This document shows, one piece after another, positions 1 to 22,696 of a DNA stretch of 32,121 nt (position 1 is the first letter of the stretch; every line of letters starts with the position of its first letter). A program made the translations under genes and the position numbers. The DNA comes from an uncultured Bacteroidales bacterium. GTDB taxonomy: Bacteria; Bacteroidota; Bacteroidia; Bacteroidales; UBA12077. The stretch lies in contig CAZWHH010000001.1 of assembly GCA_964633615.1 (NCBI GenBank), forward strand, positions 1 to 32,121, given 5' to 3'. The notes under the pieces were generated by a model. That model made no database searches. It saw only the letters and a program-made list of their open reading frames with translations, and was not told the origin of the DNA.

Positions 1-30
1 TGATAATCAAACGTTTATAAGACAAAACCC

Positions 31-1002: not shown

Positions 1003-2421
1003 CTATGTCCGCACATATTCGTTCCCTGACTTTCCTCCTGCATTTTCGACAATTTTCTGCGAAAGTTGCTGATGCTGTTTTATGAGCGATTTTTCATCGA
1101 TGTGGTCTATTGTCCCGTCACGAACAACAATCTTACCCTCAACAATCACATAATCGAATGGTTCCATGGCTACAGAAAACACCAGAGCAGCGAACGGATC
1201 GTGCAAGGCCCCTGAATATTCAACTCTATCCATAGAGATGAGATTCAGATCTGCTCGTTTCCCTACACTGATTTGTCCGATATCCGAACGATTTAACACA
1301 TCGCTTCCGCCCCGTGTAGCCATGTAAAAAACATCCTCGGCTGTCAGCCATTTTTCCTGTTCGCGAAGTCGTGAAAGAAGCATAGCGTTACGCAGCTCCA
1401 TCAGCATGTTCGAAGAATCATTAGAGGCGGAACCGTCAACACCTAAACTCACTTTTGCTCCTGCCTGCAATAATTCTTTAATTTTTGCAATTCCTGAACC
1501 TAAGCGCATATTGGAGGTAGGACAATGAGTAACACCCATCCCGGCCCTTCCTGCCAATTCCACTTCTTCATCGCTTAAGTGAATTGAATGTGCAAACCAT
1601 GCATTTTCTCTAATCCATCCGAGGGACTGAAGATAAGCGAATGGGCGCATGCCATAATTTTCAATACAGAATTCCTGCTCATCAAGTGTTTCAGCTAAAT
1701 GAGTATGAATCTGCAAATTGTACTCCTTTCCCTTTTCTACCGTTTGCTTCATAAGTTCTGGGGTTACTGAAAAAGGAGAACATGGGCCCAATGCAATGCG
1801 TGTCATTGCACCCGGGGCATCATCATGGTATTTATTGATCAGGCGAACCGTATCTTCTTCAATAGTTTTTTCCGATTGTATGACATCATCGGGAGGCAAT
1901 CCTCCATCCGATTTTCCCAATGACATGGAACCACGCGTAGGTTGAAATCTCATCCCCAACTCCCGGGCTGCTCTAATCTCTGCATCAATCAATTTGCCAG
2001 AGGTAGTTGAAGGGAAAAGGTAGTGGTGATCAGAAGTAGTGGTACAGCCGGATTTTAACAATTCCACCATGGCAAGTTTTGCTGCGGTGTAAACCGCTTC
2101 CTCTGAAATTTCGCGCCAAATCTCATAGTGTGCAATTAACCACTGAAACAAACCCTCATTCTGAACATTGAAAATATTCCGTGTCAGAGTCTGGTAAAAA
2201 TGATGATGCGTGTTAACAAAACCGGGAACAACAACCATCCGGCTGGCATCAATTTCCTCATCGGCATTTCCGTCATAGGGTTCAGGACCGGCAGAGCATA
2301 TAATCCCATCTTCAATATATATATGTCCACCTTTAAAAGCATTCACCATATCATCAGTGCCATATTCACCATCCATACGGGCACAAAGCATCGGGTCCTT
2401 AATTAAAATTGATTTGCTCAT
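1003..2421 (-). CDS. amidohydrolase-superfamily deaminase, 8-oxoguanine deaminase-like (guanine/cytosine deaminase group)
   Basis: 472-aa ORF with an ATG start. The metal-ligand motif VNTHHHFYQTLTR is present, together with GMRFQPTRGSMSLG, GPCSPFSV, IHTHLAE, HCPTSNMRLGSG and LGVDGSASND. These blocks match the pattern I recall for 8-oxoguanine deaminase / isoxanthopterin deaminase-type enzymes. Confidence 0.75.
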   Translation of the reverse strand: MSKSILIKDPMLCARMDGEYGTDDMVNAFKGGHIYIEDGIICSAGPEPYDGNADEEIDASRMVVVPGFVNTHHHFYQTLTRNIFNVQNEGLFQWLIAHYEIWREISEEAVYTAAKLAMVELLKSGCTTTSDHHYLFPSTTSGKLIDAEIRAARELGMRFQPTRGSMSLGKSDGGLPPDDVIQSEKTIEEDTVRLINKYHDDAPGAMTRIALGPCSPFSVTPELMKQTVEKGKEYNLQIHTHLAETLDEQEFCIENYGMRPFAYLQSLGWIRENAWFAHSIHLSDEEVELAGRAGMGVTHCPTSNMRLGSGIAKIKELLQAGAKVSLGVDGSASNDSSNMLMELRNAMLLSRLREQEKWLTAEDVFYMATRGGSDVLNRSDIGQISVGKRADLNLISMDRVEYSGALHDPFAALVFSVAMEPFDYVIVEGKIVVRDGTIDHIDEKSLIKQHQQLSQKIVENAGGKSGNEYVRT

Positions 2422-2455
2422 GATTTTCGGAGTTTAATTCTAATAATTCCTTTGA

Positions 2456-2487
2456 GTTGTCGCAACAACTGCGACGAAAATTCGCAG
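2456..2487 (-). promoter_or_regulatory. overlapping, mutually exclusive hairpins / triple TGCGA-TCGCA half-site element in the leader of the deaminase gene
   Basis: Minus strand: CTGCGA-ATTTTCG-TCGCAG and GTCGCA-GTTGT-TGCGAC share the central TCGCA arm. The element lies 35-66 nt upstream of the ATG at 2421, inside the only large gap (197 nt) of the array. Confidence 0.25.
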
Positions 2488-2618
2488 CAAACGGAACAAA
2501 AAATATACTTCTAATTTATAAACTAAAGTAAAACAAGATCAAGTATTTGAAATCAAACCAAAAATAATTGACATTTGGCCCGATTCATTTCTAAGATAAT
2601 TATATCCAAATCCGCAAA

Positions 2619-4103
2619 TTACTTCATCAAAGCATTGAATTCATTGATTACTTTATCGATTTCAGGAACCATCTTATGAATTTCCGCCCAGTAATCCCGG
2701 TAATTATACCATTGATCATTCAAGTCTTTCAACTCACGTCCCTGTTGTTCAATCCATGTATAATACTTCAGGTTATGAACCCGCTTCCTTTCGTAGTGAG
2801 TTAATTCCAGCGTATGATCAATGCCCAGGTTCATTAGATGATCGTAATCTTTTGCAGCTTCTTCACGCTTATAAGAACCATGTGCCTCGTGCATCTCCTC
2901 CATACGGGAATCATATAATTCCATAGAATCCGTAAAAACAGTCAACACCACATCTTCCTTAGTAAGCTCGTAGTATTTTGCGTATTTTATTGCCGACAGC
3001 ACATTTCCTATGGAAGAAATGCCCATTAAATCAAGCTGATCAATCAGTTTTTGATCAATACCTTGTTCAGCCAGGTATTCTCTGCCCTTTTCCTCGTTAA
3101 ATAAACGGGTTGTGCGCATAGTTGATTCATCGTCGACAGCTACTACCATATCCGTATTTCTGACGTTGTGGATCCAGGGTACGTGCTTGTCGCCAATACC
3201 TTCAATACGATGTCCGCCAAATCCATTTTGCAGTAAAGTTGGGCATTGCAATGCCTCTCCCACGGCAATTTTTGAACCCGGATATTGTTCTTTCAGGAAA
3301 TCTCCCGAGCCAAGTGTTCCGGCAGAACCTGAGGTTAGCACCACCCCTGAATAGTTATCCCGTGCTCCCATCTCTTTTTCCAGCACTTCCTTCATTGCAT
3401 TACCGGTGACATCATAATGCCATAAATGATTGCCAAACTCATCAAACTGGTTAAATATCATCACGTCATCACGCGTTTTTCGTAACTCCCAGCATTTGTC
3501 AAAAATTTCTTTTACGTTACTCTCACAACCGGGTGTGGCAATTACTTCACCTGCCACTTTTTTCAGCCAGTCGAAACGCTCTTTTGACATTCCTTCCGGA
3601 AGAATAGCGATTGATTCGCAGGCAAGCAAGGCTGCATCGTAAGCTCCTCCGCGACAATAATTGCCGGTGGAAGGCCAAACTGCTTTATGTTGCTTAGGGT
3701 TAAACTGCCCGGTGATCAAACGGGGAGCGAGACATCCAAAAGTAGCCCCAACTTTGTGGGCCCCGGTGGGGAACCACTTCCCCACAAGAGCTATAATTCG
3801 CGCATCCACTCCTGTAATTTCAGGTGGAAGCTCAATGTAATTTACTCCCGAATAGCCTCCTCCACTTTGGACAGGCTCATTTTTCCATGTTATTCTGAAT
3901 AAATTACGTGGATGAATATCCCACAGACCAATTCCTTCCAACTCTTTTTTGATACCATCAGGAATAAGTGAAGGATTTTTCATCTGCTCAAATGTGGGGA
4001 TAATAATATCACGTTCCTTACAAATTTCCGCATTATTCTTCTGTTGTGCTTTATCTACTTTTAAATCAATCATATCTTTCTTTGTTTTAATATATGTTAT
4101 CAA
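2619..4103 (-). CDS. fold-type II PLP-dependent enzyme (TrpB/CysK superfamily, long form; possibly OrtB-like lyase/thiolase)
   Basis: 494-aa ORF with FPTGAHKVGATFG (candidate PLP-lysine motif), a glycine-rich loop LTSGSAGTLGSG, and a roughly 130-aa helical C-terminal extension. The ORF-track start at 4103 is TTG and overlaps the upstream stop (TTGA). The first ATG is at 4073. Confidence 0.65.
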   Translation of the reverse strand: MITYIKTKKDMIDLKVDKAQQKNNAEICKERDIIIPTFEQMKNPSLIPDGIKKELEGIGLWDIHPRNLFRITWKNEPVQSGGGYSGVNYIELPPEITGVDARIIALVGKWFPTGAHKVGATFGCLAPRLITGQFNPKQHKAVWPSTGNYCRGGAYDAALLACESIAILPEGMSKERFDWLKKVAGEVIATPGCESNVKEIFDKCWELRKTRDDVMIFNQFDEFGNHLWHYDVTGNAMKEVLEKEMGARDNYSGVVLTSGSAGTLGSGDFLKEQYPGSKIAVGEALQCPTLLQNGFGGHRIEGIGDKHVPWIHNVRNTDMVVAVDDESTMRTTRLFNEEKGREYLAEQGIDQKLIDQLDLMGISSIGNVLSAIKYAKYYELTKEDVVLTVFTDSMELYDSRMEEMHEAHGSYKREEAAKDYDHLMNLGIDHTLELTHYERKRVHNLKYYTWIEQQGRELKDLNDQWYNYRDYWAEIHKMVPEIDKVINEFNALMK

Positions 4104-4930
4104 CCTCTTTTAGGGTTCTTATTCTTTTTATCTTTTAAATGAATTGCCTCTTTTTGATAGCGTATTGTCTGTATCTCAGCGGCAATAGACAATGCAATTT
4201 CCCATGGATTATCGGTACCGCCAATATCCAAACCCACGGGACAGTATACGTTCGACAGATCAGGATTTTCTTCCACTTCTTCATTCAGGCTTTCGATCAA
4301 TTCTGCACGCGTATTTGTTGAAGCGACAATGCCTATATAAGGAGTCTGAATGTTCAACTTAAAAATCTTATTCAAAATGGTGCTGTCGTGTTTATGTTGA
4401 TAGGTAGCAAGCAAGAAATAAGGATGCTTTCTAAAATGGGTTTCATCCAAATAACGGTCAAAATTGGCATGAATCTTTTCCCCTTCCTGTGCGAGCGCAT
4501 TAATCATCTCCTGGCGGTCATCAATTATTGTTACGCTTAAATCCAGTTTACCAAGCAACTCAAAGAGCGCTTTGCCGATATGTCCGGCGCCGAAGATGTA
4601 AACCTTTTTCTGTTGTATAAGTGCCTCAAAAAACAAAGTTGCCTTTCCGCCGCAAGCCATACCGGTACTTCTCCCCTCTCCTTTTTCCTTCGACAAATTA
4701 AATTGTTCAAGTGCATTTTCCCCGGATTGCATCACCTCTTTGGCTTTTCTCTCAGCAAGATATTCGAGATTACCTCCTCCTACGGTTCCTTTAGATGATC
4801 CATCCTCATAGACAAGCATTTTATTCCCTGCCAAAGCAGGACCTTCTCCCTCTTTTTTCACAACAGTTATCAGAACCCCATCCTGTCCGCTGCGCCGCAA
4901 TTCCCATACTTCTTTATAAATATCTTCCAT
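4100..4930 (-). CDS. XdhC/CoxI-family molybdenum hydroxylase maturation chaperone
   Basis: 276 aa. The N-terminal block VLITVVKKEGEGPALAGNKMLV...GTVGGGNLE and the Rossmann-like VYIFGAGHIGKALFELLGKLDLSVTIIDDR are typical of the XdhC_CoxI plus XdhC_C architecture. The gene lies within a Mo-hydroxylase operon. Confidence 0.8.
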   Translation of the reverse strand: MEDIYKEVWELRRSGQDGVLITVVKKEGEGPALAGNKMLVYEDGSSKGTVGGGNLEYLAERKAKEVMQSGENALEQFNLSKEKGEGRSTGMACGGKATLFFEALIQQKKVYIFGAGHIGKALFELLGKLDLSVTIIDDRQEMINALAQEGEKIHANFDRYLDETHFRKHPYFLLATYQHKHDSTILNKIFKLNIQTPYIGIVASTNTRAELIESLNEEVEENPDLSNVYCPVGLDIGGTDNPWEIALSIAAEIQTIRYQKEAIHLKDKKNKNPKRG

Positions 4931-4934
4931 ATTT

Positions 4935-5705
4935 CTATCTTGTCATATTATTCAAATAATTCTCTCTTTTCAGTACTTCTGAATTCGTTTTATCATCAGC
5001 CAGCCAGGTAACAAACTCTTTGCCTTTGAGATGTTTTACGGGAACAGCTTCCATTATATGCCGTTTTAAAAGCTCATAATCCTTTACAAGCGTTCCGCAA
5101 ACCGCATCAATTCCATACTCAAACAGAGCAGGAGATAGCGGAGTGGAAGGCCCCATCACAATCTTATAAGCATCATTGCGTACATATTGCATAATTTCCC
5201 AAAATGTATGATTTATCAGGGATGTTCCTGTTATCACAGCTACATCAGCTTCCGGCATATAATTTTTGATATCATTCTCTTTAAGATCCCCATCCGACGG
5301 GGACTTTTCAAAAATAAACAGTTCCCCTACTCCTTCCATATTTTCCAGAAAAGGGAAATGGCCAACCACACCCACGGTTTTATCTTTTCCCTTTTCATAG
5401 ATAAGATTTTGAGCCTTAAGCTTTTTATAAGGACGATCATAAACAGACATCCACGCATTAATCGCCGCCATGCCAATGGAGGCCTTCAAAGTATACTCCG
5501 AATAAATAAATTCCGCCAGTTCACGCAAAGACAGGTTCCTGAAATTTCCTGCTCCTGTAATATATTCGTGCGGATTGTTTCCTTTCAAAGTACTTGCAAT
5601 ACCTTCCGCTTCGCCTGCTTTCACTAATGTGGAAAAAGCGCCTACAACGACTTCATCGACAGCAATTTCCGGTATATTTTCTGTAAATTTATCTAAAATG
5701 TGCAT
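4935..5705 (-). CDS. DUF364/DUF4213-like protein (Rossmann-like, putative metal-chelation domain family)
   Basis: The ORF-track start at 5726 is TTG. The ATG at 5705 gives MHILDKF...VDEVVVGAFSTLV, a typical N-terminus for this family. VGVVGHFPF and AVITGTSLINHT motifs are present. The gene is 4 nt upstream of the XdhC-type gene. Confidence 0.6.
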   Translation of the reverse strand: MHILDKFTENIPEIAVDEVVVGAFSTLVKAGEAEGIASTLKGNNPHEYITGAGNFRNLSLRELAEFIYSEYTLKASIGMAAINAWMSVYDRPYKKLKAQNLIYEKGKDKTVGVVGHFPFLENMEGVGELFIFEKSPSDGDLKENDIKNYMPEADVAVITGTSLINHTFWEIMQYVRNDAYKIVMGPSTPLSPALFEYGIDAVCGTLVKDYELLKRHIMEAVPVKHLKGKEFVTWLADDKTNSEVLKRENYLNNMTR

Positions 5706-5793
5706 AAATAAAATACTATAAATCAATTCTTTTAATTTTTTTCCTCTTTTACGACCGGTAAATAAGTTTCTTAAATCTACTTGTTTATTATTC

Positions 5794-6657
5794 CTATTCT
5801 AATTGTTTGTTCTTTAAAATTTTATCTTCAATGAAAGCCTGTATCAAATCCAGGCTTACTGCCTTCCTGTATTCTTTCGAAGAGCGGGCATCGTCAATTG
5901 GCTGAATGTACTTTTCGTAACCCTTACGGATTTCCGGAAATGCCTCTTTAATCTCCTTACCATCCAAATCTTTCAGTCGGTTTTCTATATCTTTCTGCCG
6001 GACGATTTTGGGAGCTACAGCGCCTAATGCTATGCGAATGTCACTAAGTTTGCCCTCACTAAATGAAGCCAAGCCAGCAAAAGAAATCTTGGATAAAGCC
6101 ATCGCTTTGCGAGTTCCGACTTTCCTGTAATATTCGACATCAAAATTTTCCACAGGAATGCGGACTTCAACCAGCAACTCATCAGATTTCCTACAAGTCT
6201 GCCCGGGCCCGGTTATAAAATCCTCAATTGGCATTTCTCTTACATTTTCAGCACTCTGCAATACAATTGACGCATTGACTGCATATAAAAACGGAAGTGT
6301 ATCAGCGGCGGGTGATGCATTGCTAATGTTACCGCCAATCGTTGCGACATTGCGGGTGGTTACAGCTGCCATCTGCCGGGCTGTCTCACTGAGCACATTG
6401 GGAATTCTATTCTCTTTAATTAAATCCCTCAGCAAAACACCAGAGCCGATTATAAGCTGCCCTGAATTGATCTCAAGACGTTTCAACCGGTCAATTTTAT
6501 CTAGAAAAAGCAAAGGCTCTTCAAATCGTGGCGAAATTCCACCTTCTCTCCTGTGCTGTACCATTAAATCGGTTCCTCCGGCTATGGGAATAACCTTATT
6601 GGCTGTCATAATCTCCAATGCTTCTTCCAATGTTTGTGGAATAAAACCTTCGCTCAT
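5794..6657 (-). CDS. molybdenum hydroxylase FAD-binding subunit (CoxM/XdhB-type), set 1
   Basis: 287 aa with IPIAGGTDLMV and ATIGGNISNASPAADT motifs of the FAD_binding_5 / CO-dehydrogenase flavoprotein family. Its ATG overlaps the stop of the 2Fe-2S gene (ATGA at 6654-6657). Confidence 0.85.
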   Translation of the reverse strand: MSEGFIPQTLEEALEIMTANKVIPIAGGTDLMVQHRREGGISPRFEEPLLFLDKIDRLKRLEINSGQLIIGSGVLLRDLIKENRIPNVLSETARQMAAVTTRNVATIGGNISNASPAADTLPFLYAVNASIVLQSAENVREMPIEDFITGPGQTCRKSDELLVEVRIPVENFDVEYYRKVGTRKAMALSKISFAGLASFSEGKLSDIRIALGAVAPKIVRQKDIENRLKDLDGKEIKEAFPEIRKGYEKYIQPIDDARSSKEYRKAVSLDLIQAFIEDKILKNKQLE

Positions 6658-7121
6658 TTTTCCTCCCGCTTTTGAACCGCCGTATTGATTCCTTCAATTA
6701 TCATGTTATAACCTGTACAACGACAAAGATTACCTGAAATAGCATTCCTGATATCTTCCATGGTCGGGTTTGTCTTTTCTCGTAACAAAGCTTCTGCAGA
6801 AATAACCATACCCGGAGTACAAAAGCCACATTGCACAGCACCGGATTTTTTAAAAGCTTCCTGTATGATTTTAAAATTTTCTGTTTCACGAATTCCTTCT
6901 AATGTTTCTACAGAATGTCCGTCCACATTACCTGCAGGCAAAATGCAAGATGTAACCACCTTTCCGTCAACTAAAACAGCGCAAGCACCACATTCTCCTT
7001 CACCACACCCTTCTTTTAAACTTCTCAGGCCAAACTCATCTCTCAAAACATCTAATAATCGATGTTCCGGTGGCACATCCACTTTTACAGCCTTGTTATT
7101 TAATGTAAATTCAATCCTCAT
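6654..7121 (-). CDS. molybdenum hydroxylase [2Fe-2S] subunit, set 1
   Basis: 155 aa with CGEGECGACAVLVDGKVVTSC (plant-type 2Fe-2S) and QCGFCTPGMV...CRCTGY (second 2Fe-2S). It overlaps both neighbouring genes. Confidence 0.9.
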   Translation of the reverse strand: MRIEFTLNNKAVKVDVPPEHRLLDVLRDEFGLRSLKEGCGEGECGACAVLVDGKVVTSCILPAGNVDGHSVETLEGIRETENFKIIQEAFKKSGAVQCGFCTPGMVISAEALLREKTNPTMEDIRNAISGNLCRCTGYNMIIEGINTAVQKREEK

Positions 7122-9204
7122 TTTTTCTGGCTTTTAAATATTCAGGTGTCATAGATATCCGACCGATTCTTATTCCGAGCGCTTGCTCTGCAGCTTCTGC
7201 CAGAGCAGGTGCCACACCGCTTAAAGGCAATTCTCCGGCACATTTAGCTCCGAAAGGTCCGAATTCGTATGGATTCTCTACAAAATCACATTCAATTTCG
7301 GGTACATCAACAGAAGTGGGAATAGTATAATCCGTAAGATTAAGCTGATCAAGTTTGCCCTTCCCGTGAGTCAATTTTTCAAGATAGGCATACCCAAGCC
7401 CCTGTATCATACCGCCATGTATCTGCCCCTTTATAATATCTTCGTCCAAGGCAACTCCAATATCGTATACAGCCCATAGTTTTTCCACTTTGAGCTCACA
7501 TGTAACCGGATCAACTTCCACTTCTGCCACATTAGCTCCCCATGAATAAACAGGATAAGCATCGCCCTGAAATTTGTCATTATCCCAGCTCACATAATCA
7601 GGATGTTTATATACCTCTTTCACTTCTGTTTTTTCCTCGGTCCATTTTTCCAACAATCTATTGCAGGCTTTTTTGACAAGCCCCCCGATAATCATAGCTG
7701 TTCGTGAAGCGGCAGTAGGGCCTGAGTCAGGAACCTTATCCGTATCCTGTGTAACAAATTCTACATCAGCCTCAGGTATAGAAAGGCTGTAAGCCACAAT
7801 TTTTATAAGGGTAGTTGATGCTCCCTGGCCCATTTCAACATTAGAAGTTAAAATACTTACTTTATTCCCTTTCTTCCTCAAATAGACTTCTGCGCTTATA
7901 TTCACTTCGCCTTTCCCTGTAAAACCACAACCATGAAGGAAAAAGGAAATACCTACCCCTTTATTTTTCCCTGGATTAAGTTTCTTCTTTTCATATCCGG
8001 ACATTGTATTAATTTTATCAAGGACTTCCCGAATTTTAACATCCGACCACATCTTTCCTCCTGTAGAAGTAGCATCTCCTTTTTTCAGAAAATAGCGCTT
8101 TTTAAATTTCAGTGAGGAGTACCCGGTTTCAGAAGCCATACGGTTCATAAGCTGTTCGATTCCAAAAAGAACCTGTGGAGATCCGAACCCCCGAAAAGCG
8201 CCGGAAGGAACTGTATTAGTCTTTACAACTCTTCCTCTCACTTGCAGATTTGGAAAAGCATAAACTCCTGTAGCCGTAAAAATGCCCCGTTGGAGCACTA
8301 CAGGGGAAATCGTAGCATAAGCTCCACCATCAAACGAAACATCGATGTCGAGGGCAGTAATTTCATCTTTTTCATTTAAAGCTACACGGTATTTCAGTAT
8401 GGATGGATGTCGCTTAGTTGTGGCTTCAATATCTTCCTTTCTGTCAAGAATAAGCCTGACGGTTTTATTGGTTTTCAACGCAGCCGTAGCTGCCTGTGCA
8501 GCCAACAGGGAAGGATACTCCTCTTTTCCGCCAAATGCCCCACCGGTAACTGTTTGAATGATTTGAATTTTGTCTTTAGGAAATCCTGTAGCTTCAATTA
8601 TTGCATTTTTAACGAAATAGGGACATTGAACAGACCCATAAATGATAATTCTTCCATTGTGATATTGAGCAATCACCCCATTGGTTTCCAGATAAAGATG
8701 TTCCGGACGGCCTGTGCGAAATTCGTCGGTGATAATCTTTGACGCATTAGCAAAAGCTTCATCAGGATCTCCTTTCGAATAATCATACTCCACATGGTGC
8801 TCCTTTTTTTCTTCTGCTTCTTCAATGCTTGTAATTGGCGATAATTCCCGGTAATCAATTTCTACCTGTGAAGCCAGCTCGGCTGTTTTTTCTTTGGAAG
8901 GACCAGTAATAAGCAATATAGGCTGACCAATGTAATGCACTTCATCTTCAGCAAAAACAGGATGATCGCATACCACTGTCTGCATCCTGTTGTTTCCCTG
9001 AATATCATTTTTATCGATTACTTCGTAAGCCGCTGGTAGTACAGGCAGATGTATGGCTTCTATTTTTGCATGAGCCTTGCTGCTACGGACGGTTCTGGCA
9101 TGCACATAGTTTCCCGGGTTCATATCTGCTATATATTCCGCCCTCCCTGAAATCTTTTGTTCCGCATCCAACCTTGGTATGGAAGCACTTATTGATTTAT
9201 CCAT
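7111..9204 (-). CDS. molybdopterin-binding large subunit of a xanthine dehydrogenase-family hydroxylase, set 1
   Basis: 697 aa with GGAFGGKEE, GAFRGFGSPQ and the C-terminal FGAKCAGELPL (catalytic Glu motif). These are the signatures I associate with bona fide xanthine dehydrogenases. Confidence 0.85.
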   Translation of the reverse strand: MDKSISASIPRLDAEQKISGRAEYIADMNPGNYVHARTVRSSKAHAKIEAIHLPVLPAAYEVIDKNDIQGNNRMQTVVCDHPVFAEDEVHYIGQPILLITGPSKEKTAELASQVEIDYRELSPITSIEEAEEKKEHHVEYDYSKGDPDEAFANASKIITDEFRTGRPEHLYLETNGVIAQYHNGRIIIYGSVQCPYFVKNAIIEATGFPKDKIQIIQTVTGGAFGGKEEYPSLLAAQAATAALKTNKTVRLILDRKEDIEATTKRHPSILKYRVALNEKDEITALDIDVSFDGGAYATISPVVLQRGIFTATGVYAFPNLQVRGRVVKTNTVPSGAFRGFGSPQVLFGIEQLMNRMASETGYSSLKFKKRYFLKKGDATSTGGKMWSDVKIREVLDKINTMSGYEKKKLNPGKNKGVGISFFLHGCGFTGKGEVNISAEVYLRKKGNKVSILTSNVEMGQGASTTLIKIVAYSLSIPEADVEFVTQDTDKVPDSGPTAASRTAMIIGGLVKKACNRLLEKWTEEKTEVKEVYKHPDYVSWDNDKFQGDAYPVYSWGANVAEVEVDPVTCELKVEKLWAVYDIGVALDEDIIKGQIHGGMIQGLGYAYLEKLTHGKGKLDQLNLTDYTIPTSVDVPEIECDFVENPYEFGPFGAKCAGELPLSGVAPALAEAAEQALGIRIGRISMTPEYLKARKNED

Positions 9205-9209
9205 CTTTA

Positions 9210-9779
9210 TTATTTTTCAAAAAATCTCTTCTTAATATACTCATAATCTTCATCTGTGTCAATATCCAGCAAAATCCCTTCGTCCTCAACTTCAACAACA
9301 TTGGCTTTGCGGCTATGAATAAAATCCCTGAGAATACCATCTTCAGGCATTTCAATAATTCCCTCACGGCAGTCATTGCGAAACAATACCGGATGTCCTT
9401 TCTTCCCTTTAAAAGAAGGATTAACAATGTTGCCCTCAGTTTTCATAAGCTTTGTCAGCGTTTGCCTTTTAATCATTGGCTGGTCGCCGGGGAGAACAAA
9501 AAACGTATCAGATTTCAATTCCTTTACCCCACATTGCACAGAAGAGAACATCCCCTTGCGGAAATCCGGATTTTCAACTATCCTGACACCCTTGTGACTC
9601 TGCAGGACCTGTTCACATTCTCTTGCTTTATGTCCTGCAACAACAATCACGTTATCGCACACCTCCAATAAAGTATCAACCGTATGTTCTATGACGGTCT
9701 TTTCTCCAAGTGGTAAAGTCATTTTATAGCGACTTGTCCGTGAAGACAAACCCGCTGCAAGAACTATGGCTTCAATCAT
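9210..9779 (-). CDS. mocA: molybdenum cofactor cytidylyltransferase (MocA/YgfJ family)
   Basis: 189 aa with N-terminal IVLAAGLSSRTSRYKMTLPLG, typical of the NTP_transf_3 family (MobA/MocA). Its start overlaps the upstream stop by 8 nt, and it lies 5 nt upstream of the Mo subunit gene. Confidence 0.75.
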   Translation of the reverse strand: MIEAIVLAAGLSSRTSRYKMTLPLGEKTVIEHTVDTLLEVCDNVIVVAGHKARECEQVLQSHKGVRIVENPDFRKGMFSSVQCGVKELKSDTFFVLPGDQPMIKRQTLTKLMKTEGNIVNPSFKGKKGHPVLFRNDCREGIIEMPEDGILRDFIHSRKANVVEVEDEGILLDIDTDEDYEYIKKRFFEK

Positions 9780-10953: not shown

Positions 10954-10968
10954 AATATTAAATTTTTC

Positions 10969-13195: not shown

Positions 13196-13226
13196 ATGTA
13201 TTATCCTTTAAATATTTTTTCTGTTG

Positions 13227-16475: not shown

Positions 16476-17751
16476 AAAACCTCCCCTGTAATTTTTTTGC
16501 AGCTTTCTTCAGTTCTTTTTTTATTTCAGCCTCATCCACAGTTTGAATCTTTCCGTCGCGGTAAATTACTTCTCCGCCTGAAATAGTCATGTAGGTTTTC
16601 TGTGCTCCAAAGCCGAGTATAAGATGAAAAAACAGATTGTCTAAATTTATAGGTGTTTCAGGCACATAATCCAACACCGCCAAATCAGCAGTACGTCCAA
16701 CCTGAAGTCCTCCACTTTGCGGAAAAACGGAATTGATCACTTCTTCTGAACGCCGGAATAATTTATCTGCCGGATTTTCAACTGCCCCATTCCTTCTAAG
16801 AAAATGAGACCGGTAGCTGCCGATAATATTCCCGGACATTCCATCCGTTCCTATGACGTAATCCCTGATCTTTTCGGTATCCATCATTCCCACGTTATTA
16901 TTAGCATTCGACTCCGGATTGGAAACCACCACCGGATTATATTCATTAATTAACCGTGCGTCATTTTCAGAAATATGGACACAATGTATCAAAAGAGAAA
17001 AATCTGACAATAAATTAAATTGATTCAACCGGTCTATCGGACCATCAAAACCTTCATCCAGACAAAAATCAAAATCCTCCTTTCCTTCACCGCAATGAAT
17101 GTGTATTGGCATCTTATCCGGTTTATTATGGCTGATCGTTTGTAGCGAATCACTGCTTAATGTGAAATTGGCATGTAATCCCATCATTCCTTTTGTTTTA
17201 GGGGAATCAATGTGTTCATTGTAAAATTTAAGATTTTCATCCAACTGTTTCCGAAATACATCTTCACCCTCCCTGTCAGATATTTCAAAGGACAGTGCGC
17301 TTTTTAAGCCCACTTCATTAAAAGCTTTTTCAATTAAATCGAGACTTCCTTTCACATAGTTGGAAGAAACATGATGGTCAAAAATAGTAGTAACTCCGTA
17401 TTTCGCGGAATCGATAACACCGGAGAGAGCAGAATAGTAAACTGTCTCTTCATCCAAAACCCGGTCAAGTGGCCACCAAAGGTTTTTAAGAATATTGGAA
17501 AGTTTATCGGTCGGGCCGAGGGGAACAATTCCAACAGCAAAACGTGAATAAAGATGATGGTGTGGGTTCAATAATCCCGGAATAATAATCCTGCCGCCAG
17601 CATCAATGTATTCTCCATCCGTTTTTTCCATTTCATGCGCACTTCCTATAGCGGCAATTTTGTCATTCTCAATGCGGACGAACCCATTCTCATAGAACAC
17701 TGAATGTCCGTCTGTTACTACTGCATTTCCTATTGTATAATTTGTTGACAT
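16468..17751 (-). CDS. ssnA: SsnA-like aminohydrolase (amidohydrolase superfamily)
   Basis: 427 aa. LKNLWWPLDRVLDEETVYYSAL...IFDHHVS...GSLDLIEKAF closely parallels remembered E. coli SsnA (LKNLWWRLDRALDEESLYYSGL...VIDHHAS). A PHHHLYS metal motif is present. The stop overlaps the ygfK start by 8 nt. Confidence 0.85.
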   Translation of the reverse strand: MSTNYTIGNAVVTDGHSVFYENGFVRIENDKIAAIGSAHEMEKTDGEYIDAGGRIIIPGLLNPHHHLYSRFAVGIVPLGPTDKLSNILKNLWWPLDRVLDEETVYYSALSGVIDSAKYGVTTIFDHHVSSNYVKGSLDLIEKAFNEVGLKSALSFEISDREGEDVFRKQLDENLKFYNEHIDSPKTKGMMGLHANFTLSSDSLQTISHNKPDKMPIHIHCGEGKEDFDFCLDEGFDGPIDRLNQFNLLSDFSLLIHCVHISENDARLINEYNPVVVSNPESNANNNVGMMDTEKIRDYVIGTDGMSGNIIGSYRSHFLRRNGAVENPADKLFRRSEEVINSVFPQSGGLQVGRTADLAVLDYVPETPINLDNLFFHLILGFGAQKTYMTISGGEVIYRDGKIQTVDEAEIKKELKKAAKKLQGRFYE

Positions 17752-17762
17752 ATATTTATCTT

Positions 17763-19115
17763 TTATGCTATTCGTTTAATCATTTTACCATATCCCGGGT
17801 CAGCTACAATCCCTTTATCAACATCATAAATAATCTTGCCTCTTAATATAGTATTTCTGATACGACCTTCGAATTCCATGTCTTCAAAAGGAGTAATTTT
17901 ACCCTTAGAATAAAGGTCCTTTCCCCGGACTGTCCATTTTGAATCCGGATCAATTATTACAAGATCCGCATCTTTTCCAATTGCGATGGAACCTTTCCTG
18001 TTGTAAAAACCATATCTTCGGGCCGCGTTTTCAGAACTAAGCTGAAGAAAACGGCTCAGACTTATCCGTTTTTTTGAAAAACCCTCAGAAAACAAGAAGG
18101 GAAGGAGTGTTGGATTGCCGGGTATTCCTGAATAATCTGTCCATACCGAACCTGTATGCTTTTGTTCCTCTGGTGCAGGTGCATGGTCAGAAGCTATAAA
18201 ATCTATTCCGCCTTCCCTCATGTATTTCCATAGCTCACTTTTATTTTCTTCTGATTTTACTACAGGTGCTGTTTTAAGTGCGCTGCCAAATTTTTCAAAA
18301 TCGTCTTTGGAAAAGGCCAGATAATGCGGGCAGGTTTCACCGGTAACATATTTAAAATCTTTCAATAATTCCACCGCCTGTGCTGTTCCAACATGGACGA
18401 TGTGTATATTGGCCCCAACTTCTTTAGCGATACTCAAAGCCTGCTGTACAGCAAGAATTTCAGCAATCTCCGGGCGAGAACGATAGTAATTTTCCCATTC
18501 TTCACCTTTAGCTTTTTCAACCTGTATTGCTTCATTAACAAACTCAGCGTCTTCGGCATGAAGGAGTACAGGAATGTTAAGTTCTTTTGCTTTCTGAAGC
18601 ACATTCATAAATTGGTATCGCGAGAGGCTCCTAAAACTGTCCATTCCGGAGAGAAAATAAGTTTTAAAACCCATCACTGTATTGGATAGTTCCTCCATTT
18701 GGTCTGCATAGCCTTCCTGATAGGATTGGGAAGAAACTCCCCCAAAAAATCCATAGTCTACAATTGCTTTATTTTCAATCTGTTTATGCTTTTCCTTCAA
18801 ATTTTTCATGTTGGTGACCGGAGGCACTGAAGTACAGGGCATATCTATCACCGTAGTTATACCACCAGATGCGGCTGCTGAACTGCCATGTAAAAAATCT
18901 TCCCTTTCTGTAAAGCCGGGGTCGTCAAAATGAACATGAGGATCGATACCGCCGGGAATAACCAGGCAACCGGAAGCATCAATAACATTCTCTCCTTCCA
19001 GATTGCTACCCAAATCTGTAATTACACCATTCTGAGTTTCAATATCAAGTAGCTTGGTTTGATCTTCGCCGGATAAGGCAACTTTTCCATTTTTAATAAG
19101 CAACTTATCACTCAT
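17763..19115 (-). CDS. cyclic amidohydrolase (allantoinase/dihydroorotase/hydantoinase family)
   Basis: 450 aa with a full set of binuclear-metal ligand motifs: GGIDPHVHF, GFKTYF (carboxylated Lys position), LLHAE, HIVHV and ASDHAPA. The SDHAP-type motif looks closer to allantoinase/DHOase than to dihydropyrimidinase. Confidence 0.8.
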   Translation of the reverse strand: MSDKLLIKNGKVALSGEDQTKLLDIETQNGVITDLGSNLEGENVIDASGCLVIPGGIDPHVHFDDPGFTEREDFLHGSSAAASGGITTVIDMPCTSVPPVTNMKNLKEKHKQIENKAIVDYGFFGGVSSQSYQEGYADQMEELSNTVMGFKTYFLSGMDSFRSLSRYQFMNVLQKAKELNIPVLLHAEDAEFVNEAIQVEKAKGEEWENYYRSRPEIAEILAVQQALSIAKEVGANIHIVHVGTAQAVELLKDFKYVTGETCPHYLAFSKDDFEKFGSALKTAPVVKSEENKSELWKYMREGGIDFIASDHAPAPEEQKHTGSVWTDYSGIPGNPTLLPFLFSEGFSKKRISLSRFLQLSSENAARRYGFYNRKGSIAIGKDADLVIIDPDSKWTVRGKDLYSKGKITPFEDMEFEGRIRNTILRGKIIYDVDKGIVADPGYGKMIKRIA

Positions 19116-21423
19116 GATTCAACTCCTTATATATTTTTTCCGGTGTAAAAGGTGTTTCACGCAATCTAATTCCAACGGCATCATATATCGCATTGGCAAT
19201 GGCCGGTGCCGGGCAATTTATGCCTATTTCTCCAACAGATTTGGCACCAAAGGGGCCGGTTTTTTCTTCCGAATCAACGAGGAGAGTCTCCATTTCAGGG
19301 ATATCATTACTTCGCCATATCTTATAATCCCAGAAAGAAGCATTAGTCATGTTCCCTTTGGAAGTAAAGTGGAAATTTTCAAATAGTGCATAAGTCATAC
19401 CGTTAATTGCTGCACCTTCGACTTGTCCTTCAGCAAGTTTAGGATTAATAGCCTGACCACAATCCACGACAGAAACAAATTTTATTATGTTCACTTTCCC
19501 GGTCCCTTTATCTAATTCTACCTCAGCAAACTGGGCGATAAAAGGCGGAGGTGATTGGTCAACAAAACTGGAAGCTTCCGCCTGAATTTGTGTAAGCTGC
19601 CCGCCATAGAGGGTTTCATTGGCGATTTCTTCAAAAGAACATTCTTTTTTGGACTCCGAATCGATTACTTTGCCATTCCCGAGGCTTAGTTTATCTCCTT
19701 TTGCGTCCAGGATATTAGTGGCTGCACCCAGAATTTGGTCTTTTATTTTAGTTGCACATTTTTCAACTGCAGTTCCGGAGACGTAGGTCGTTGATGAAGC
19801 ATAAGCTCCCACGTCAAAAGGAGTTTGGTCGGTATCGGAAGACAGCACTATGATTTTTTCCGTGTCTACCTGCAATACCTCTGCAGCGATTTGTGCAAGT
19901 ATTGTGTCGGAACCGGTTCCAATATCCGTAGCCCCAATATCCAGATTAAAACTACCATCTTCGTTCATTTTCATGTATGCAGCACCAAGGTCGATCATCG
20001 GAATGCCTGAACCCTGCATTGCTACAGCAACACCCAAACCGCGAACAAAGCCAGGCTTAGGTTCCGTCTTTTTTCCCCGCTTTTGATACCAGTCAATCAT
20101 CTCTGCCCCTCTGTCAATACATTCGTCAAGCTTGCAGGAATTGATAATTTGTTCTACGCCTTCTTTTCCTTCGCCAAGCGCCTTAAAGACATCAGAAGTT
20201 TCTCCTTCTTTTATATGCCATTTCTTTATATACTCAAGGATATCCTGGTTAGTCTTTCGCGCTATGATATCGATCTGTTGATTCAGCGCAAAATAGGCCT
20301 GTGTAGCGCCATAACCACGGTAAGCTCCTCCCACAGGTAAGTTCGTGTATGCAGACCTTGCCCGGAAGTAAATATTTTTAATCTTATTAAATAACGGCAA
20401 ACATTTTGAACCTGAATTGGAAGAGACTGTAAGCGCATGGCTGCCATAAGCTCCGGTATTCATAATATTATCCATGCTTAAGGCAGTAATTTCACCATCT
20501 TTCTTAAATCCTGTTTTTAATTTCACCTGCATCGGGTGGCGCTGTCGGCCAGACTGGAATTCTTCCTGGCGTGTATAAATCAATCTTACCGGACGTTTGG
20601 TACGCAAAGTAAGCAGTGCTACATAAGGCTCAAGCAACACCTCCTGCTTGGCTCCAAAACCACCGCCGATACGTGGTTTTATTACTCGTATTTTCCTCAG
20701 TGGATAATTAAGCACGCGGGCCACAATACGCCGGGCATGAAAAGGAACCTGTGTAGCTGTCACAATCACAAGTCGCCCGTTTTCATCGAAGTAAGACGCT
20801 GCAATATGCGGTTCCATTGTAGCATGCGAAGCGTAAGCGCTCTGATAAATTTCCTCTACCACATAATCCGCGTCTTCAAAACCTTTTTCAACTTCTCCCA
20901 CAGAGAAATCCACTTCTGATGCCAGGTTTTCTTCGGGCTTATAAGGGACAGGGATTGGGAAATATCCGTCTTTATCATGTATAGCTATTGATCCCTGCAA
21001 AGCTTTCTCCGGATCGAAAACTGCCTCCAGCAATTCATATTCTACTTTAATTTTTTTTACCGCTTCCTCAGCTATCTCCATGGTTTCCGCAGCCACCATT
21101 GCCACAAAGTCACCGGCATATCGAACCACATCATCAAATAAAAGCGTATCATAAGGAGATGGTTCGGGGGCACCCTGTCCGGCTGTAGTATAATAGACTT
21201 TTTCGATTTCTTTATGTGAAATTACATCCACAACGCCCTCCATTTCCTTTGCTTCAGACACATCAATACTCTTTATCCGGGCATGCGCATGGGGACTTCT
21301 GAGTATCCGAACCTTCAAATAATTATCAAGGCGATAATCTTCTGTAAACAAAGAACTTCCGGTTGCCAGTGCCATTGCATCTGTTTTTTCTACAGATTGG
21401 CCTATATTACGATATTTTCTCAT
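19108..21423 (-). CDS. molybdopterin-binding large subunit of a xanthine dehydrogenase-family hydroxylase, set 2
   Basis: 771 aa with GGGFGAKQE, GGAYRGYGATQ and the C-terminal FGAKSVGEIGI. The N-terminal a/b hammerhead-like region is LKVRILRSPHAHARI. Confidence 0.85.
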   Translation of the reverse strand: MRKYRNIGQSVEKTDAMALATGSSLFTEDYRLDNYLKVRILRSPHAHARIKSIDVSEAKEMEGVVDVISHKEIEKVYYTTAGQGAPEPSPYDTLLFDDVVRYAGDFVAMVAAETMEIAEEAVKKIKVEYELLEAVFDPEKALQGSIAIHDKDGYFPIPVPYKPEENLASEVDFSVGEVEKGFEDADYVVEEIYQSAYASHATMEPHIAASYFDENGRLVIVTATQVPFHARRIVARVLNYPLRKIRVIKPRIGGGFGAKQEVLLEPYVALLTLRTKRPVRLIYTRQEEFQSGRQRHPMQVKLKTGFKKDGEITALSMDNIMNTGAYGSHALTVSSNSGSKCLPLFNKIKNIYFRARSAYTNLPVGGAYRGYGATQAYFALNQQIDIIARKTNQDILEYIKKWHIKEGETSDVFKALGEGKEGVEQIINSCKLDECIDRGAEMIDWYQKRGKKTEPKPGFVRGLGVAVAMQGSGIPMIDLGAAYMKMNEDGSFNLDIGATDIGTGSDTILAQIAAEVLQVDTEKIIVLSSDTDQTPFDVGAYASSTTYVSGTAVEKCATKIKDQILGAATNILDAKGDKLSLGNGKVIDSESKKECSFEEIANETLYGGQLTQIQAEASSFVDQSPPPFIAQFAEVELDKGTGKVNIIKFVSVVDCGQAINPKLAEGQVEGAAINGMTYALFENFHFTSKGNMTNASFWDYKIWRSNDIPEMETLLVDSEEKTGPFGAKSVGEIGINCPAPAIANAIYDAVGIRLRETPFTPEKIYKELNHE

Positions 21424-21883
21424 AATCTTTCATTTTTTTTGCAGCCAGTTTAACCGCATCAATTATTTTAATATATCCCGTACATCGGCAAAGGACACCT
21501 TCCATTCCCACTTGTATTTGTTCATCTGTTGGATTGGGAATATTCTTTAACAAATGATAAGCAGACAACACCATTGCAGGGGTACAAAAACCACACTGCA
21601 CAGCTCCTGTTTCAACAAATGCTTCTTGAATAGCATGAGGATGATGTATATCGCCGATCCCCTTTACCGTTGTTATTTCTTGTTCTATAATGGCTGCAGT
21701 GAATACACGGCAGGAGTTTACAGGTTTCCCATTCAGGAGCACCATGCAGGATCCACATTCTCCCTCATCGCATCCGCGCTTCACTTCGCTATAACCATAA
21801 TTCCGAAGGGTATCCAGGAGCAGTTCCTCTTCTCCGTGAACCATTCGTTTTTCTTTGTTATTGATATAAAAAATATTTTCCAT
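21407..21883 (-). CDS. molybdenum hydroxylase [2Fe-2S] subunit, set 2
   Basis: 158 aa with CDEGECGSCMVLLNGKPVNSC and QCGFCTPAMV...CRCTGY. It overlaps the set-2 Mo subunit start by 17 nt. Confidence 0.9.
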   Translation of the reverse strand: MENIFYINNKEKRMVHGEEELLLDTLRNYGYSEVKRGCDEGECGSCMVLLNGKPVNSCRVFTAAIIEQEITTVKGIGDIHHPHAIQEAFVETGAVQCGFCTPAMVLSAYHLLKNIPNPTDEQIQVGMEGVLCRCTGYIKIIDAVKLAAKKMKDYEKIS

Positions 21884-21886
21884 TGG

Positions 21887-22696
21887 TTATGACTTCAAAA
21901 GTTCAATTAATCCTCTTTCAATTTGAGTTTCCGCAAGGTGTTTGACATAATCTGAAGACATCCCTTTTGCGGAAACAAATTTTATATCTAATCCTTTTGC
22001 AATATCTTTTAAATCCAACTGATCAGTATCCTTTCCTTTTAGTTGATCTTCAATTTCGGAGAGTCTCATAAATCTATCTGTATGTCCTGTCAAAACAATG
22101 GCAATGTCTTCAAGTGCATTCTTCTTGCGTTTAACCAAAATTGTAATTGTAAAGCCAGGATGGTCGTTTTTAGTTATACCCTCCCGATAATACCATGAAT
22201 CCCATGACGTATCCGGAATAAGGATTTCTGTAATTAATGTTTGGGATTTTAACTCTTTTTGGGTAAGATAATCCTTAACCGGGAAGAGTCCTGAATTAGC
22301 ACCTTTCAATTTAACCCTGGCTTCTAAAGCAATCAATGGGCCAATTAAATCGGACCAATTTGGTGCCAGGCGAAGACTTCCGCCAATAGTAATCCGGTTG
22401 CGAATAGATATGGTTGCGGCAGGTCCTAATGATTTAGCCAGAATATGTCCCGGCTCTATTTCATTAAGGCGTTCAACAATAGAATTATAATCCGTTAGAC
22501 TGCCCATTTTTATTGATCCATCCTCTCTTTTAACATAATTGAGCGGAAGCTTATCCAGACAAACAATACGATTTCCGTTGTTAAGTTGCTTACTGGTAAG
22601 ATGAGTTCCTCCACCATGGATAACAGCCTTATCGTCTCTGATTAAATCAAGAGCTTCTTCAATTTGCTCTGGGTATTCCCATTTAATTTTTTTCAT
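21887..22696 (-). CDS. molybdenum hydroxylase FAD-binding subunit, set 2 (first gene of the array)
   Basis: 269 aa with VIHGGGTHL and ITIGGSL motifs of the CoxM/XdhB-type flavoprotein subunit. It lies 3 nt upstream of the 2Fe-2S gene. Confidence 0.75.
   Translation of the reverse strand: MKKIKWEYPEQIEEALDLIRDDKAVIHGGGTHLTSKQLNNGNRIVCLDKLPLNYVKREDGSIKMGSLTDYNSIVERLNEIEPGHILAKSLGPAATISIRNRITIGGSLRLAPNWSDLIGPLIALEARVKLKGANSGLFPVKDYLTQKELKSQTLITEILIPDTSWDSWYYREGITKNDHPGFTITILVKRKKNALEDIAIVLTGHTDRFMRLSEIEDQLKGKDTDQLDLKDIAKGLDIKFVSAKGMSSDYVKHLAETQIERGLIELLKS

Follow-up and report, generated by a model that had tools for sequence, protein, structure and literature searches.

The minus strand of contig CAZWHH010000001.1, from an uncultured Bacteroidales bacterium, carries between positions 1003 and 22696 an unbroken run of 17 open reading frames (ORFs) that covers 21,694 nt of the 32,121-nt stretch of DNA analysed here (the window). 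We read these 17 genes, with a probability of about 0.75, as one operon for anaerobic purine and urate catabolism that would encode a variant of the 2,8-dioxopurine (reductive urate) pathway. Strong Pfam matches were obtained for 17 of the 17 ORFs, which indicates that they are real genes. Six neighbouring pairs overlap at their starts and stops (21407–21423, 19108–19115, 16468–16475, 9772–9779, 7111–7121 and 6654–6657), the remaining gaps measure 3–88 nt given ATG starts at 4073 and 5705, and the one large gap, of 197 nt (2422–2618), lies ahead of the last gene. The ATG at 4073 yields a 484-aa product identical to public protein records, which hold exact copies of several other window proteins as well, and no extra minus-strand ORF of at least 30 aa was found in the 197-nt gap or in the other gaps. 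An earlier reading of the window made from its letters alone (the sequence-only reading) had described this co-directional run with the same six overlaps, the same range of small gaps and the same single larger gap, all of which hold; its count of 18 coding sequences does not, and its own junctions (six overlaps, nine small gaps and one large gap, hence 16) imply 17. An eighteenth functionally linked gene, for an NTPase_1 protein at 22889–23407, does exist, but it lies on the plus strand and diverges from the operon.

The reductive urate pathway has been reconstituted from E. coli and C. sporogenes in two studies (Li et al. 2025, PMC12507026; Liu et al. 2025, 10.1101/2025.04.24.650524), so that the earlier statement that most reaction steps are poorly assigned is now outdated. 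In the reconstituted pathway XdhD–YgfM (DOPDH) converts urate to 2,8-dioxopurine, YgfK (DOPOR) reduces the ring, and SsnA and then HyuA open both rings to give 2,3-diureidopropionate. YgeW, together with the carbamate kinase YqeA, and YgeY take off the two ureido groups, and YgeX breaks down 2,3-diaminopropionate to pyruvate and ammonia. Hypoxanthine and xanthine enter the pathway as urate through a separate xanthine dehydrogenase (XDH), and both molybdenum (Mo) enzymes need the SelD/YqeB/YqeC selenium trait. Against this scheme the window proteins, which are 28–47% identical to the proteins of the E. coli cluster, can be placed step by step.

The enzymes for ring reduction, ring opening and ureido removal occupy the middle of the operon. 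YgfK (NADPH:2,8-dioxopurine oxidoreductase; 13227–16475 (−)) matches TIGR03315 with 865 bits, above the cut-off of 835.3, and is 34% identical to E. coli YgfK over about 1000 residues. The name 'selenate reductase' that has been attached to YgfK is ruled out by published biochemistry, which makes the protein a 2,8-dioxopurine reductase. The ygfK gene is overlapped by 8 nt by ssnA (16468–17751 (−)), whose product finds its best NCBIfam match in NF005540 (383 bits, cut-off 444), is 32% identical to E. coli SsnA and has metal ligands that are invariant in the family alignment; this SsnA-type amidohydrolase is predicted to perform the first ring opening after reduction. The position of HyuA is taken by a cyclic amidohydrolase of the allantoinase/dihydroorotase type (17763–19115 (−)), which exceeds the allantoinase cut-off (TIGR03178, 369.6 bits against 357.85), stays below that of the D-hydantoinases by which HyuA is defined (IPR011778/TIGR02033, 267.7 against 393.25) and is only 29% identical to E. 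coli HyuA. Orthologues with 43–60% identity hold the same position in other phyla, and the enzyme is predicted to carry out the second ring opening, to 2,3-diureidopropionate. The sequence-only reading had expected a hydantoinase-type amidohydrolase here; an amidohydrolase is indeed present, whereas the NCBIfam scores make it allantoinase-like.

The M20 hydrolase YgeY (12014–13195 (−)) scores 488.9 bits against NF009555 (cut-off 321), is 47% identical to E. coli YgeY and is predicted to remove one ureido group. Next to it, the role of YgeW appears to fall to a carbamoyltransferase (10969–11961 (−)) with OTCace_N and OTCace domains that resembles ornithine transcarbamylase (OTC), with 262.7 bits against the OTC cut-off of 280.85. 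Its carbamoyl-phosphate motifs STRTR and HPLQ are kept, HCLP is changed to HALP, and the ornithine motif DxxxSMG was not found in it. YgeW models give this protein 185.5 and 178.6 bits against cut-offs of 453 and 500. It is probably an alternative enzyme for the YgeW step, of the same superfamily and with the same role, and is predicted to phosphorolyse a ureido group to carbamoyl phosphate. Profile hidden Markov models therefore place three of the proteins where the sequence-only reading had put them, YgfK and YgeY above their cut-offs and SsnA by its best match though below its own, whereas the protein it called YgeW-type fits at the family level and is no YgeW orthologue. A tblastn search of the 32-kb window with the carbamate kinase YqeA, whose gene is a frequent though not constant member of such clusters, gave no significant match; in C. 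sporogenes the carbamate kinase is encoded outside the cluster, and here, too, by analogy, the gene may lie elsewhere in the genome.

Two three-subunit Mo hydroxylases, which we call X1 and X2, flank these genes. X1 is encoded by the first three genes of the operon: a YgfM-like FAD subunit (21887–22696 (−); Pfam FAD_binding_5 and CO_deh_flav_C) whose best E. coli match is YgfM at 28% identity, a [2Fe-2S] subunit (21407–21883 (−); Fer2_2 and Fer2) that matches residues 5–151 of XdhD as well as E. coli XdhC, and an XdhD/DOPDH-type molybdopterin subunit (19108–21423 (−)) that is 39% identical to E. coli XdhD as compared with 33% to XdhA. The [2Fe-2S] gene, which overlaps the molybdopterin gene by 17 nt, encodes what in E. 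coli is the N-terminal portion of a fused XdhD. The molybdopterin subunit and XdhD have in common an insertion (ALGEGK and AIGEGK, respectively) with Glu606 that is lacking in XdhA and X2; Glu606 of XdhD was singled out by Li et al. (PMC12507026). Like XdhD, the X1 subunit has Gln at the position of E802 of bovine xanthine oxidoreductase (XOR) and no Arg at that of R880, and its closest solved relative is 4-hydroxybenzoyl-CoA reductase, a reductive dehydroxylase. On account of the XdhD-specific insertion, these active-site positions and this kinship, X1 is predicted to be the urate reductase that produces 2,8-dioxopurine.

The closest solved relatives of the X2 molybdopterin subunit (7111–9204 (−)) are the bovine, human and rat XOR enzymes. 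E802, R880, F914, F1009, T1010 and E1261 of bovine XOR are substrate-binding and catalytic residues. An alignment to chain C of 1FIQ pairs bovine E802, R880, R912/F914, F1009/T1010 and E1261 with X2 E228, R306, R338/F340, F428/T429 and E658. Because all of the bovine substrate residues are kept, X2 is predicted to be a genuine xanthine/hypoxanthine dehydrogenase that feeds urate into the pathway; its molybdopterin subunit stays below the NCBIfam equivalog cut-offs (e.g., TIGR02965, 367 against 849.5). The accompanying [2Fe-2S] subunit (6654–7121 (−); Fer2_2 and Fer2) is 44% identical to E. coli XdhC, and the FAD subunit (5794–6657 (−); FAD_binding_5 and CO_deh_flav_C) is 29% identical to E. 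coli XdhB. A second feeder may be the product of the last gene (1003–2421 (−)), an amidohydrolase of the 8-oxoguanine deaminase family (NF006055, 594.3 bits against a cut-off of 532; PDB 3HPA at 2.7e-123 and 7WW2, '8-oxoguanine deaminase', at 3.1e-121) that is predicted to turn 8-oxoguanine or a related aminopurine into urate. The gene follows that of a pyridoxal 5′-phosphate (PLP) enzyme, PLP486, in many spirochaete loci, and by analogy it appears to be an ordinary feeder, the same part as the guaD gene beside the E. coli cluster. The sequence-only reading had assigned X1, X2 and the deaminase to the right families; it had also counted the two Mo hydroxylases among the non-canonical components, whereas the known pathway itself uses both DOPDH and XDH.

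The largest departure from the known pathway concerns its terminal step. A tblastn search for YgeX in the window returned only a 46-residue superfamily match, inside PLP486, and the operon instead encodes two other PLP enzymes. One of them (9772–10953 (−)) has a PALP domain preceded by an N-terminal four-Cys ribbon, and its PLP lysine, Lys104, aligns with Lys61 of Thermus thermophilus threonine synthase. This ThrC-like protein passes the TIGR00260 thrC model with 184.8 bits (cut-off 167.1). However, threonine synthase residues T88, N154, S155, R160 and N188 (T. thermophilus numbering), which we take to be those that bind the phosphate of O-phosphohomoserine, are replaced by A131, T197, G198, T203 and D231, and A131, T197, T203 and D231 are invariant in 27 members of the ThrC-like family from several phyla. 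Despite the TIGR00260 match, the replaced phosphate site indicates that the protein is no threonine synthase; with Asp in place of Asn at the leaving-group site, the enzyme may be suited to an amine that departs as a cation.

The other, PLP486 (484 aa; 2619–4073 (−)), has a weak PALP match and scores 92.6 bits against the cysK model (cut-off 350.95), and its Lys107 aligns with the PLP lysine of cystathionine β-synthase (CBS). An AlphaFold model (pLDDT 77.8, pTM 0.85) finds CBS and O-acetylserine sulfhydrylase as its top Foldseek matches, with target-normalised TM scores of 0.75–0.81 at 20–27% identity. Relative to these two-domain relatives of about 300 residues, PLP486 has about 170 additional residues, about 75 at the N terminus and about 95 at the C terminus, in helical regions. 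Only 340 representatives at 50% clustering match it with E ≤ 1e-30, many of them fragments, and its sequence is unusually well conserved, identity among the Bacteroidota, WOR-3, Marinimicrobia, Acidobacteriota, Spirochaetales and Anaerolineae proteins being 70–75%. In profile comparisons the ThrC-like family aligns with YgeX over 228 columns at 23% identity (hhalign probability 89%) and PLP486 over 47 columns only (probability 20%). By these comparisons neither protein is a YgeX orthologue, the similarity being at the level of the superfamily, which agrees with the two non-YgeX PLP enzymes noted in the sequence-only reading. Most probably the pair forms pyruvate and ammonia from 2,3-diaminopropionate, or from a precursor that still has one ureido group and a free α-amino group; that one enzyme is a racemase and the other a lyase, or that the two make up a heteromeric enzyme, is conceivable but speculative.

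The distribution of the pair was followed in 160 loci sampled from at least eight phyla, 80 of them from named genomes with the ThrC-like protein as anchor and 80 from metagenomes with SsnA as anchor, in which ORFs were labelled by their best BLASTP match to the window and E. coli proteins under identity thresholds that we set. In close relatives with ThrC-like proteins of 93% (L002, L003) and 79% (L005) identity, the same 15–17 genes stand in the same order, and contigs from WOR-3 (L008), Marinimicrobia (L006) and Acidobacteriota (L007) retain most of that order. The kept block runs YgeY, OTC-like, ThrC-like, MocA, X2 (in the order Mo, FeS, FAD), an ORF of about 205 aa, DUF364, XdhC, NTPase_1 and PLP486, usually with X1, the allantoinase-like enzyme, SsnA and a reductase ahead of it; the reductase is YgfK or, in WOR-3, of the UacX type. 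The recurrence of this order in relatives and in other phyla places the arrangement far beyond chance. The ORF of about 205–209 aa between the X2 FAD gene and DUF364 was seen in the Acidobacteriota and WOR-3 loci (e.g., L008 15139–15756) and is absent from the window; neither Pfam nor NCBIfam assigns this conserved ORF to a family. DUF364 is missing from the Marinimicrobia locus L006, where the gene for the X2 FAD subunit is followed by an ORF of 206 aa that matches no Pfam family. The WOR-3 locus has a UacX-type reductase (DHO_dh and 4Fe-4S; L008 6270–7361) instead of YgfK, and the Marinimicrobia locus has a carbamate kinase (L006 6173–7255) within the cluster, between two carbamoyltransferase genes; steps therefore appear to be swapped freely among versions of the cluster.

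Within this sample the pair and YgeX are distributed in a complementary way. Among the loci anchored on the ThrC-like gene, 54 of 80 also hold PLP486 (36 of the 44 that extend over at least 15 kb), the two PLP genes are adjacent in 38 of the 54 that hold both, at least one urate-pathway marker is present in 55 of 80, and YgeX in a single one (1/80; L029), whose layout is repeated without ygeX in L043. YgeX is present in 16 of the 80 SsnA-anchored loci and at least one of the two PLP genes in nine, with no overlap between these sets. When only the 24 SsnA loci with a lower-pathway gene are considered, none has both, 15 have YgeX only, five the pair only and four neither (one-sided Fisher p = 0.003). 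The choice of terminal enzyme also tracks the ring opener: the pair accompanies the allantoinase-like enzyme in 17 loci and the E. coli-type HyuA in two, whereas YgeX occurs with the E. coli-type HyuA in 6 of 6 (p = 1.6e-4). The link of the pair with ring openers of the allantoinase and not the D-hydantoinase type suggests that the lower branch may run via a different stereoisomer or regioisomer. The two types of carbamoyltransferase never occur together, with the OTC-like enzyme in 10 and the E. coli-type YgeW in 14 of the 44 loci of at least 15 kb and no locus with both; the pair occurs with the OTC-like enzyme in 22 loci and with the YgeW type in 22. In two betaproteobacterial loci (L056, L057) two decarbamoylases, an M20 amidase of the carbamoylase family and a CN_hydrolase, stand immediately before the pair, and no Mo enzyme or XdhC was found within 10 kb.

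The remaining genes of the operon point to the maturation of the Mo cofactor (Moco). A MocA-type molybdenum cofactor cytidylyltransferase (9210–9779 (−); NTP_transf_3) scores 165.2 bits against TIGR03310 (cut-off 186.45) and is 31% identical to E. coli MocA. The DUF4213/DUF364 protein (4935–5705 (−); Pfam 1.3e-33 and 9.1e-15) has counterparts at the same place, after the X2 genes and ahead of XdhC, in loci of WOR-3, Acidobacteriota and Marinimicrobia; DUF364 has been associated in the literature with molybdate-uptake operons, and a role in molybdenum or Moco handling is predicted for it. These two calls of the sequence-only reading are right by Pfam and NCBIfam. A short XdhC-family protein (4100–4930 (−); XdhC_CoxI and XdhC_C), a putative chaperone for Moco insertion or maturation, is 24% identical to the first 251 residues of E. 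coli YqeB, and YqeB-family models are absent from its NCBIfam matches. The divergent NTPase_1/DUF2478 P-loop protein (22889–23407 (+); Pfam NTPase_1 2.6e-14) belongs to a family whose genes in L006, L007 and L008 run in line with the cluster, between those for XdhC and PLP486, and is a probable accessory of cofactor maturation. By tblastn, no selD, full-length yqeB or yqeC was found in the window. Farther along the plus strand, a 399-aa polytopic membrane protein (23584–24783 (+)) with at least seven hydrophobic segments has no Pfam or NCBIfam family match; homologues with 37–38% identity flank the cluster in two Bacteroidetes loci from metagenome-assembled genomes (MAGs; L037, L064), and with low confidence it may be a purine or urate transporter of an undescribed family. 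Xanthine/uracil permeases are found in related loci (L007; xanQ-like genes).

Taken in order, and derived wholly from homology and gene context, the proposed flow would begin with X2, which would oxidise hypoxanthine and xanthine to urate, and with the deaminase, which would bring in 8-oxoguanine-type aminopurines as urate. The three-subunit XdhD/YgfM-type X1 would strip the 6-oxo group from urate to give 2,8-dioxopurine, YgfK would reduce the ring with NADPH, SsnA would then open it, and the allantoinase-like amidohydrolase would take the place of HyuA in opening the second ring to 2,3-diureidopropionate. The OTC-like enzyme, in place of YgeW, would free one ureido group as carbamoyl phosphate, with ATP formed by a carbamate kinase encoded elsewhere, and YgeY would hydrolyse the other to leave 2,3-diaminopropionate. 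From this diamino acid, or from its mono-ureido precursor, the ThrC-like and CysK/CBS-like enzymes would together, in place of YgeX, form pyruvate and ammonia by aminoacrylate chemistry. The Mo cofactor would be assembled and put in place by MocA, XdhC, DUF364 and the divergent NTPase_1, which would stand in for YqeB and YqeC. This supports the core of the sequence-only reading, an anaerobic purine/urate catabolism island of the E. coli/clostridial type with a different accessory set. Its proposal of an undescribed variant route stands for the lower branch, from ring opening to pyruvate, and falls for the pathway as a whole, which was already known; the accessory departures it listed were partly the right ones, the main ones being the PLP pair, the allantoinase-like and OTC-like enzymes and the XdhC/DUF364/NTPase_1 set.

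A bolder form of this model would make the PLP pair an unrecognised two-enzyme substitute for diaminopropionate ammonia-lyase that co-evolves with the allantoinase-type opener, so that many environmental anaerobes (Bacteroidota, Marinimicrobia, WOR-3, Acidobacteriota, Spirochaetota, Desulfobacterota and others) would run the lower half of the pathway through stereo- or regiochemically different intermediates, and the Mo cofactor might be selenium-independent and matured by XdhC and DUF364. We hold this tentatively, at somewhat short of even odds. Several observations weigh against the assignment of the operon and of the pair. The functions are all inferred from sequence and context, and SsnA, MocA, the Mo subunits of X1 and X2 and the carbamoyltransferase lie below the curated family cut-offs. 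Genes for carbamate kinase, SelD, YqeB and YqeC are lacking from the window. The model calls for two enzymes where YgeX suffices, and PLP486 here adjoins cofactor-maturation genes rather than the ThrC-like gene. L029 holds YgeX and the pair together, L066 and L077 hold the pair without a urate gene within 10 kb, and the pair may do something other than, or beyond, the work of YgeX. The co-occurrence counts, moreover, depend on the thresholds we set and come from loci that are not phylogenetically independent.

The position of PLP486 directly after XdhC and NTPase_1 maturation-type genes, in the window as in the WOR-3 and Acidobacteriota loci, raises the question of whether the pair instead supplies sulfur or selenium, for example through a cysteine- or selenocysteine-type intermediate, for the sulfido or selenido ligand of Mo together with XdhC, DUF364 and NTPase_1, the diaminopropionate enzyme being encoded elsewhere. 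Its cysteine synthase/CBS fold belongs to handlers of sulfur nucleophiles, and the known pathway requires a selenium cofactor trait of which YqeB and YqeC are absent from the window. Even so, the pair mostly adjoins YgeY and decarbamoylases and not Mo enzymes, the betaproteobacterial loci carry it with neither Mo enzyme nor XdhC nearby, and its distribution complements that of YgeX and not that of YqeB/YqeC; known bacterial Moco sulfuration uses a fold-type I desulfurase of the NifS/IscS type. We consider a sulfur- or selenium-supplying pair unlikely.

Improbable, too, is a cluster of paralogues that degrades some other N-heterocycle, such as a pterin, another oxopurine isomer or a pyrimidine-like compound, with urate not its physiological substrate. 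The sub-threshold scores of SsnA, X1, X2, the carbamoyltransferase and, for TIGR02033, the cyclic amidohydrolase, at 26–39% identity to the E. coli proteins, would allow for such a shift, and the 8-oxoguanine deaminase family includes isoxanthopterin and triazine hydrolases, but YgfK and YgeY exceed their equivalog cut-offs, X1 carries the XdhD-specific Glu606 insertion, X2 has the complete set of xanthine-binding residues, the full enzyme series fits the urate route step for step, and the permeases of related loci are of the xanthine/uracil type. That the two PLP proteins are housekeeping passengers, a real threonine synthase and a real cysteine synthase, is what the names in public records and the TIGR00260 score would imply. 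This is highly improbable in view of the replaced phosphate-binding residues, four of the five replacements being invariant in the family, the low cysK score and roughly 170 extra residues of PLP486, and the linkage of the two genes to each other and to urate genes in many phyla, which biosynthetic thrC and cysK do not show. The best reading of the locus is, in our view, that of a widespread environmental variant of the known pathway with an undescribed two-enzyme terminal step.

Searches for regulatory signals and for the origin of the island gave the following picture. An Rfam scan of the window (gathering threshold or E ≤ 1) returned no RNA family, and hence no purine riboswitch or other leader, and a tRNA search of the window found none. 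A scan of positions 1–4200 for σ70 promoters and terminators gave counts that were not above those of shuffled sequence, Bacteroidota promoters being outside the scope of the scan. The 197-nt gap, which can be aligned with the relatives only in part, could be an operator or internal promoter region; a short inverted repeat inside it, CTGCGA-N6-TCGCAG, is kept in L002 and has no Rfam match. The GC content of the cluster (0.413) exceeds that of its flanks (0.334 for 1–1002 and 0.353 for 22697–32121), and, in blastn comparisons in which only the end-points of long alignments were used, the flank past the deaminase gene is not common to L002, despite the 93% identity of its ThrC-like protein, and the neighbours in L005 differ again. 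Together with the gene order kept across phyla, the GC contrast and the unshared flanks suggest that the island moves horizontally or occupies variable contexts. The flanks also contain a HipA-N/HipA-C toxin-type gene pair, an AraC-family regulator with DUF6597 and a weak Ogg-like glycosylase (coordinates as grouped, 30770–32004 (+), 27550–28434 (−) and 31–780 (+)), with no evident link to the island. Proteins 90–95% identical to those of the window carry the NCBI MAG label 'Bacteroidota bacterium', and the best named-genome representative in a scan of genome collections is only 61% identical (Neomarinimicrobiota); the Bacteroidota-like origin proposed in the sequence-only reading is reasonable on the basis of those MAG labels only.

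The 2,8-dioxopurine pathway itself is known, having been solved only in 2025 in gut Bacillota and E. coli, and it is being pursued for urate-lowering probiotics; what appears to be new, as far as the papers searched go, is the combination of replacements. An alternative version, in which three catalytic steps and the cofactor-maturation set would be carried by other protein families, appears to be common in uncultured environmental lineages of many phyla. It offers a testable function for two large families that at present are wrongly annotated as 'threonine synthase' and as 'cysteine synthase' or 'PLP-dependent enzyme'. A published neighbourhood survey, which found SsnA mainly in Pseudomonadota, Bacillota, Chloroflexota, Actinomycetota, Spirochaetota and Elusimicrobiota, scored YgeX as Pfam PF00291 and could therefore not separate YgeX from the two PLP families described here; surveys that score YgeX by Pfam domain lump distinct enzymes. 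BLAST screens with the seven-gene set of C. sporogenes, in turn, would probably overlook, in clusters like this one, the genes for the terminal step, the ring opener and the carbamoyltransferase. Several environmental metagenomics papers appear to treat YgfK as a marker of selenate reduction. Because YgfK is a 2,8-dioxopurine reductase and occurs in purine clusters of environmental MAGs, such marker counts probably reflect purine catabolism. Our literature search returned nothing relevant on the ThrC-like/PLP pair, or on this set of replacements, in urate clusters, and a preprint on uricolysis by Prevotella copri describes no gene cluster.

The architecture of the operon is best appreciated by comparison with known systems. 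With the E. coli K-12 cluster (ygeW-ygeX-ygeY-hyuA-yqeA … mocA-ygfK-ssnA-ygfM-xdhD) it has in common a backbone of an XdhD/YgfM-type enzyme, YgfK, an SsnA-type enzyme, a cyclic amidohydrolase, a carbamoyltransferase, YgeY and MocA. Similarly, ygfK and ssnA are adjacent in both, with an 8-nt overlap here and a 2-nt gap and the opposite order in E. coli, and a purine deaminase and a xanthine dehydrogenase lie near the cluster in E. coli as here. In contrast, the genes form one operon here and several transcription units in E. coli, XdhD is split into FeS and Mo genes, and an allantoinase-like enzyme stands for HyuA, an OTC-like enzyme for the knotted YgeW and two other PLP enzymes for YgeX; YqeA, YqeB, YqeC, the YgeV regulator and purine permeases are missing, while XdhC, DUF364 and NTPase_1 are present. 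The clostridial urate clusters (C. sporogenes, and the UacX/UacY variant of C. difficile) are as compact as this one and provide a published precedent for lineage-specific swaps, of YgfK for UacX and of YgeW for UacY. They keep HyuA, YgeX and Mo enzymes without an FAD subunit, whereas here both Mo enzymes have FAD subunits and YgeX is absent. XdhC domains matching that of the window are found in the Rhodobacter-type xanthine dehydrogenase systems.

At the level of single enzymes, AllB hydrolyses allantoin (5-ureidohydantoin), which is one CH2 apart from the pathway intermediate 5-ureidomethylhydantoin; AllB works in the context of the oxidative urate pathway, whereas the allantoinase-like enzyme here stands in a reductive context with a predicted substrate. 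The threonine synthases of T. thermophilus (1UIM) and Aquifex aeolicus (2ZSJ) are the nearest solved relatives of the ThrC-like protein and have the PLP lysine and core fold in common with this protein, which lacks their phosphate site and has a four-Cys ribbon, and the nearest solved relatives of PLP486 are cysteine synthase/CBS enzymes (e.g., 2Q3B and 6C4P) at 20–27% identity. YgeX, a fold-type II PLP enzyme, belongs to the same superfamily as the pair, holds the same position beside YgeY and has a complementary distribution, with one protein in the known pathway where the window has two.

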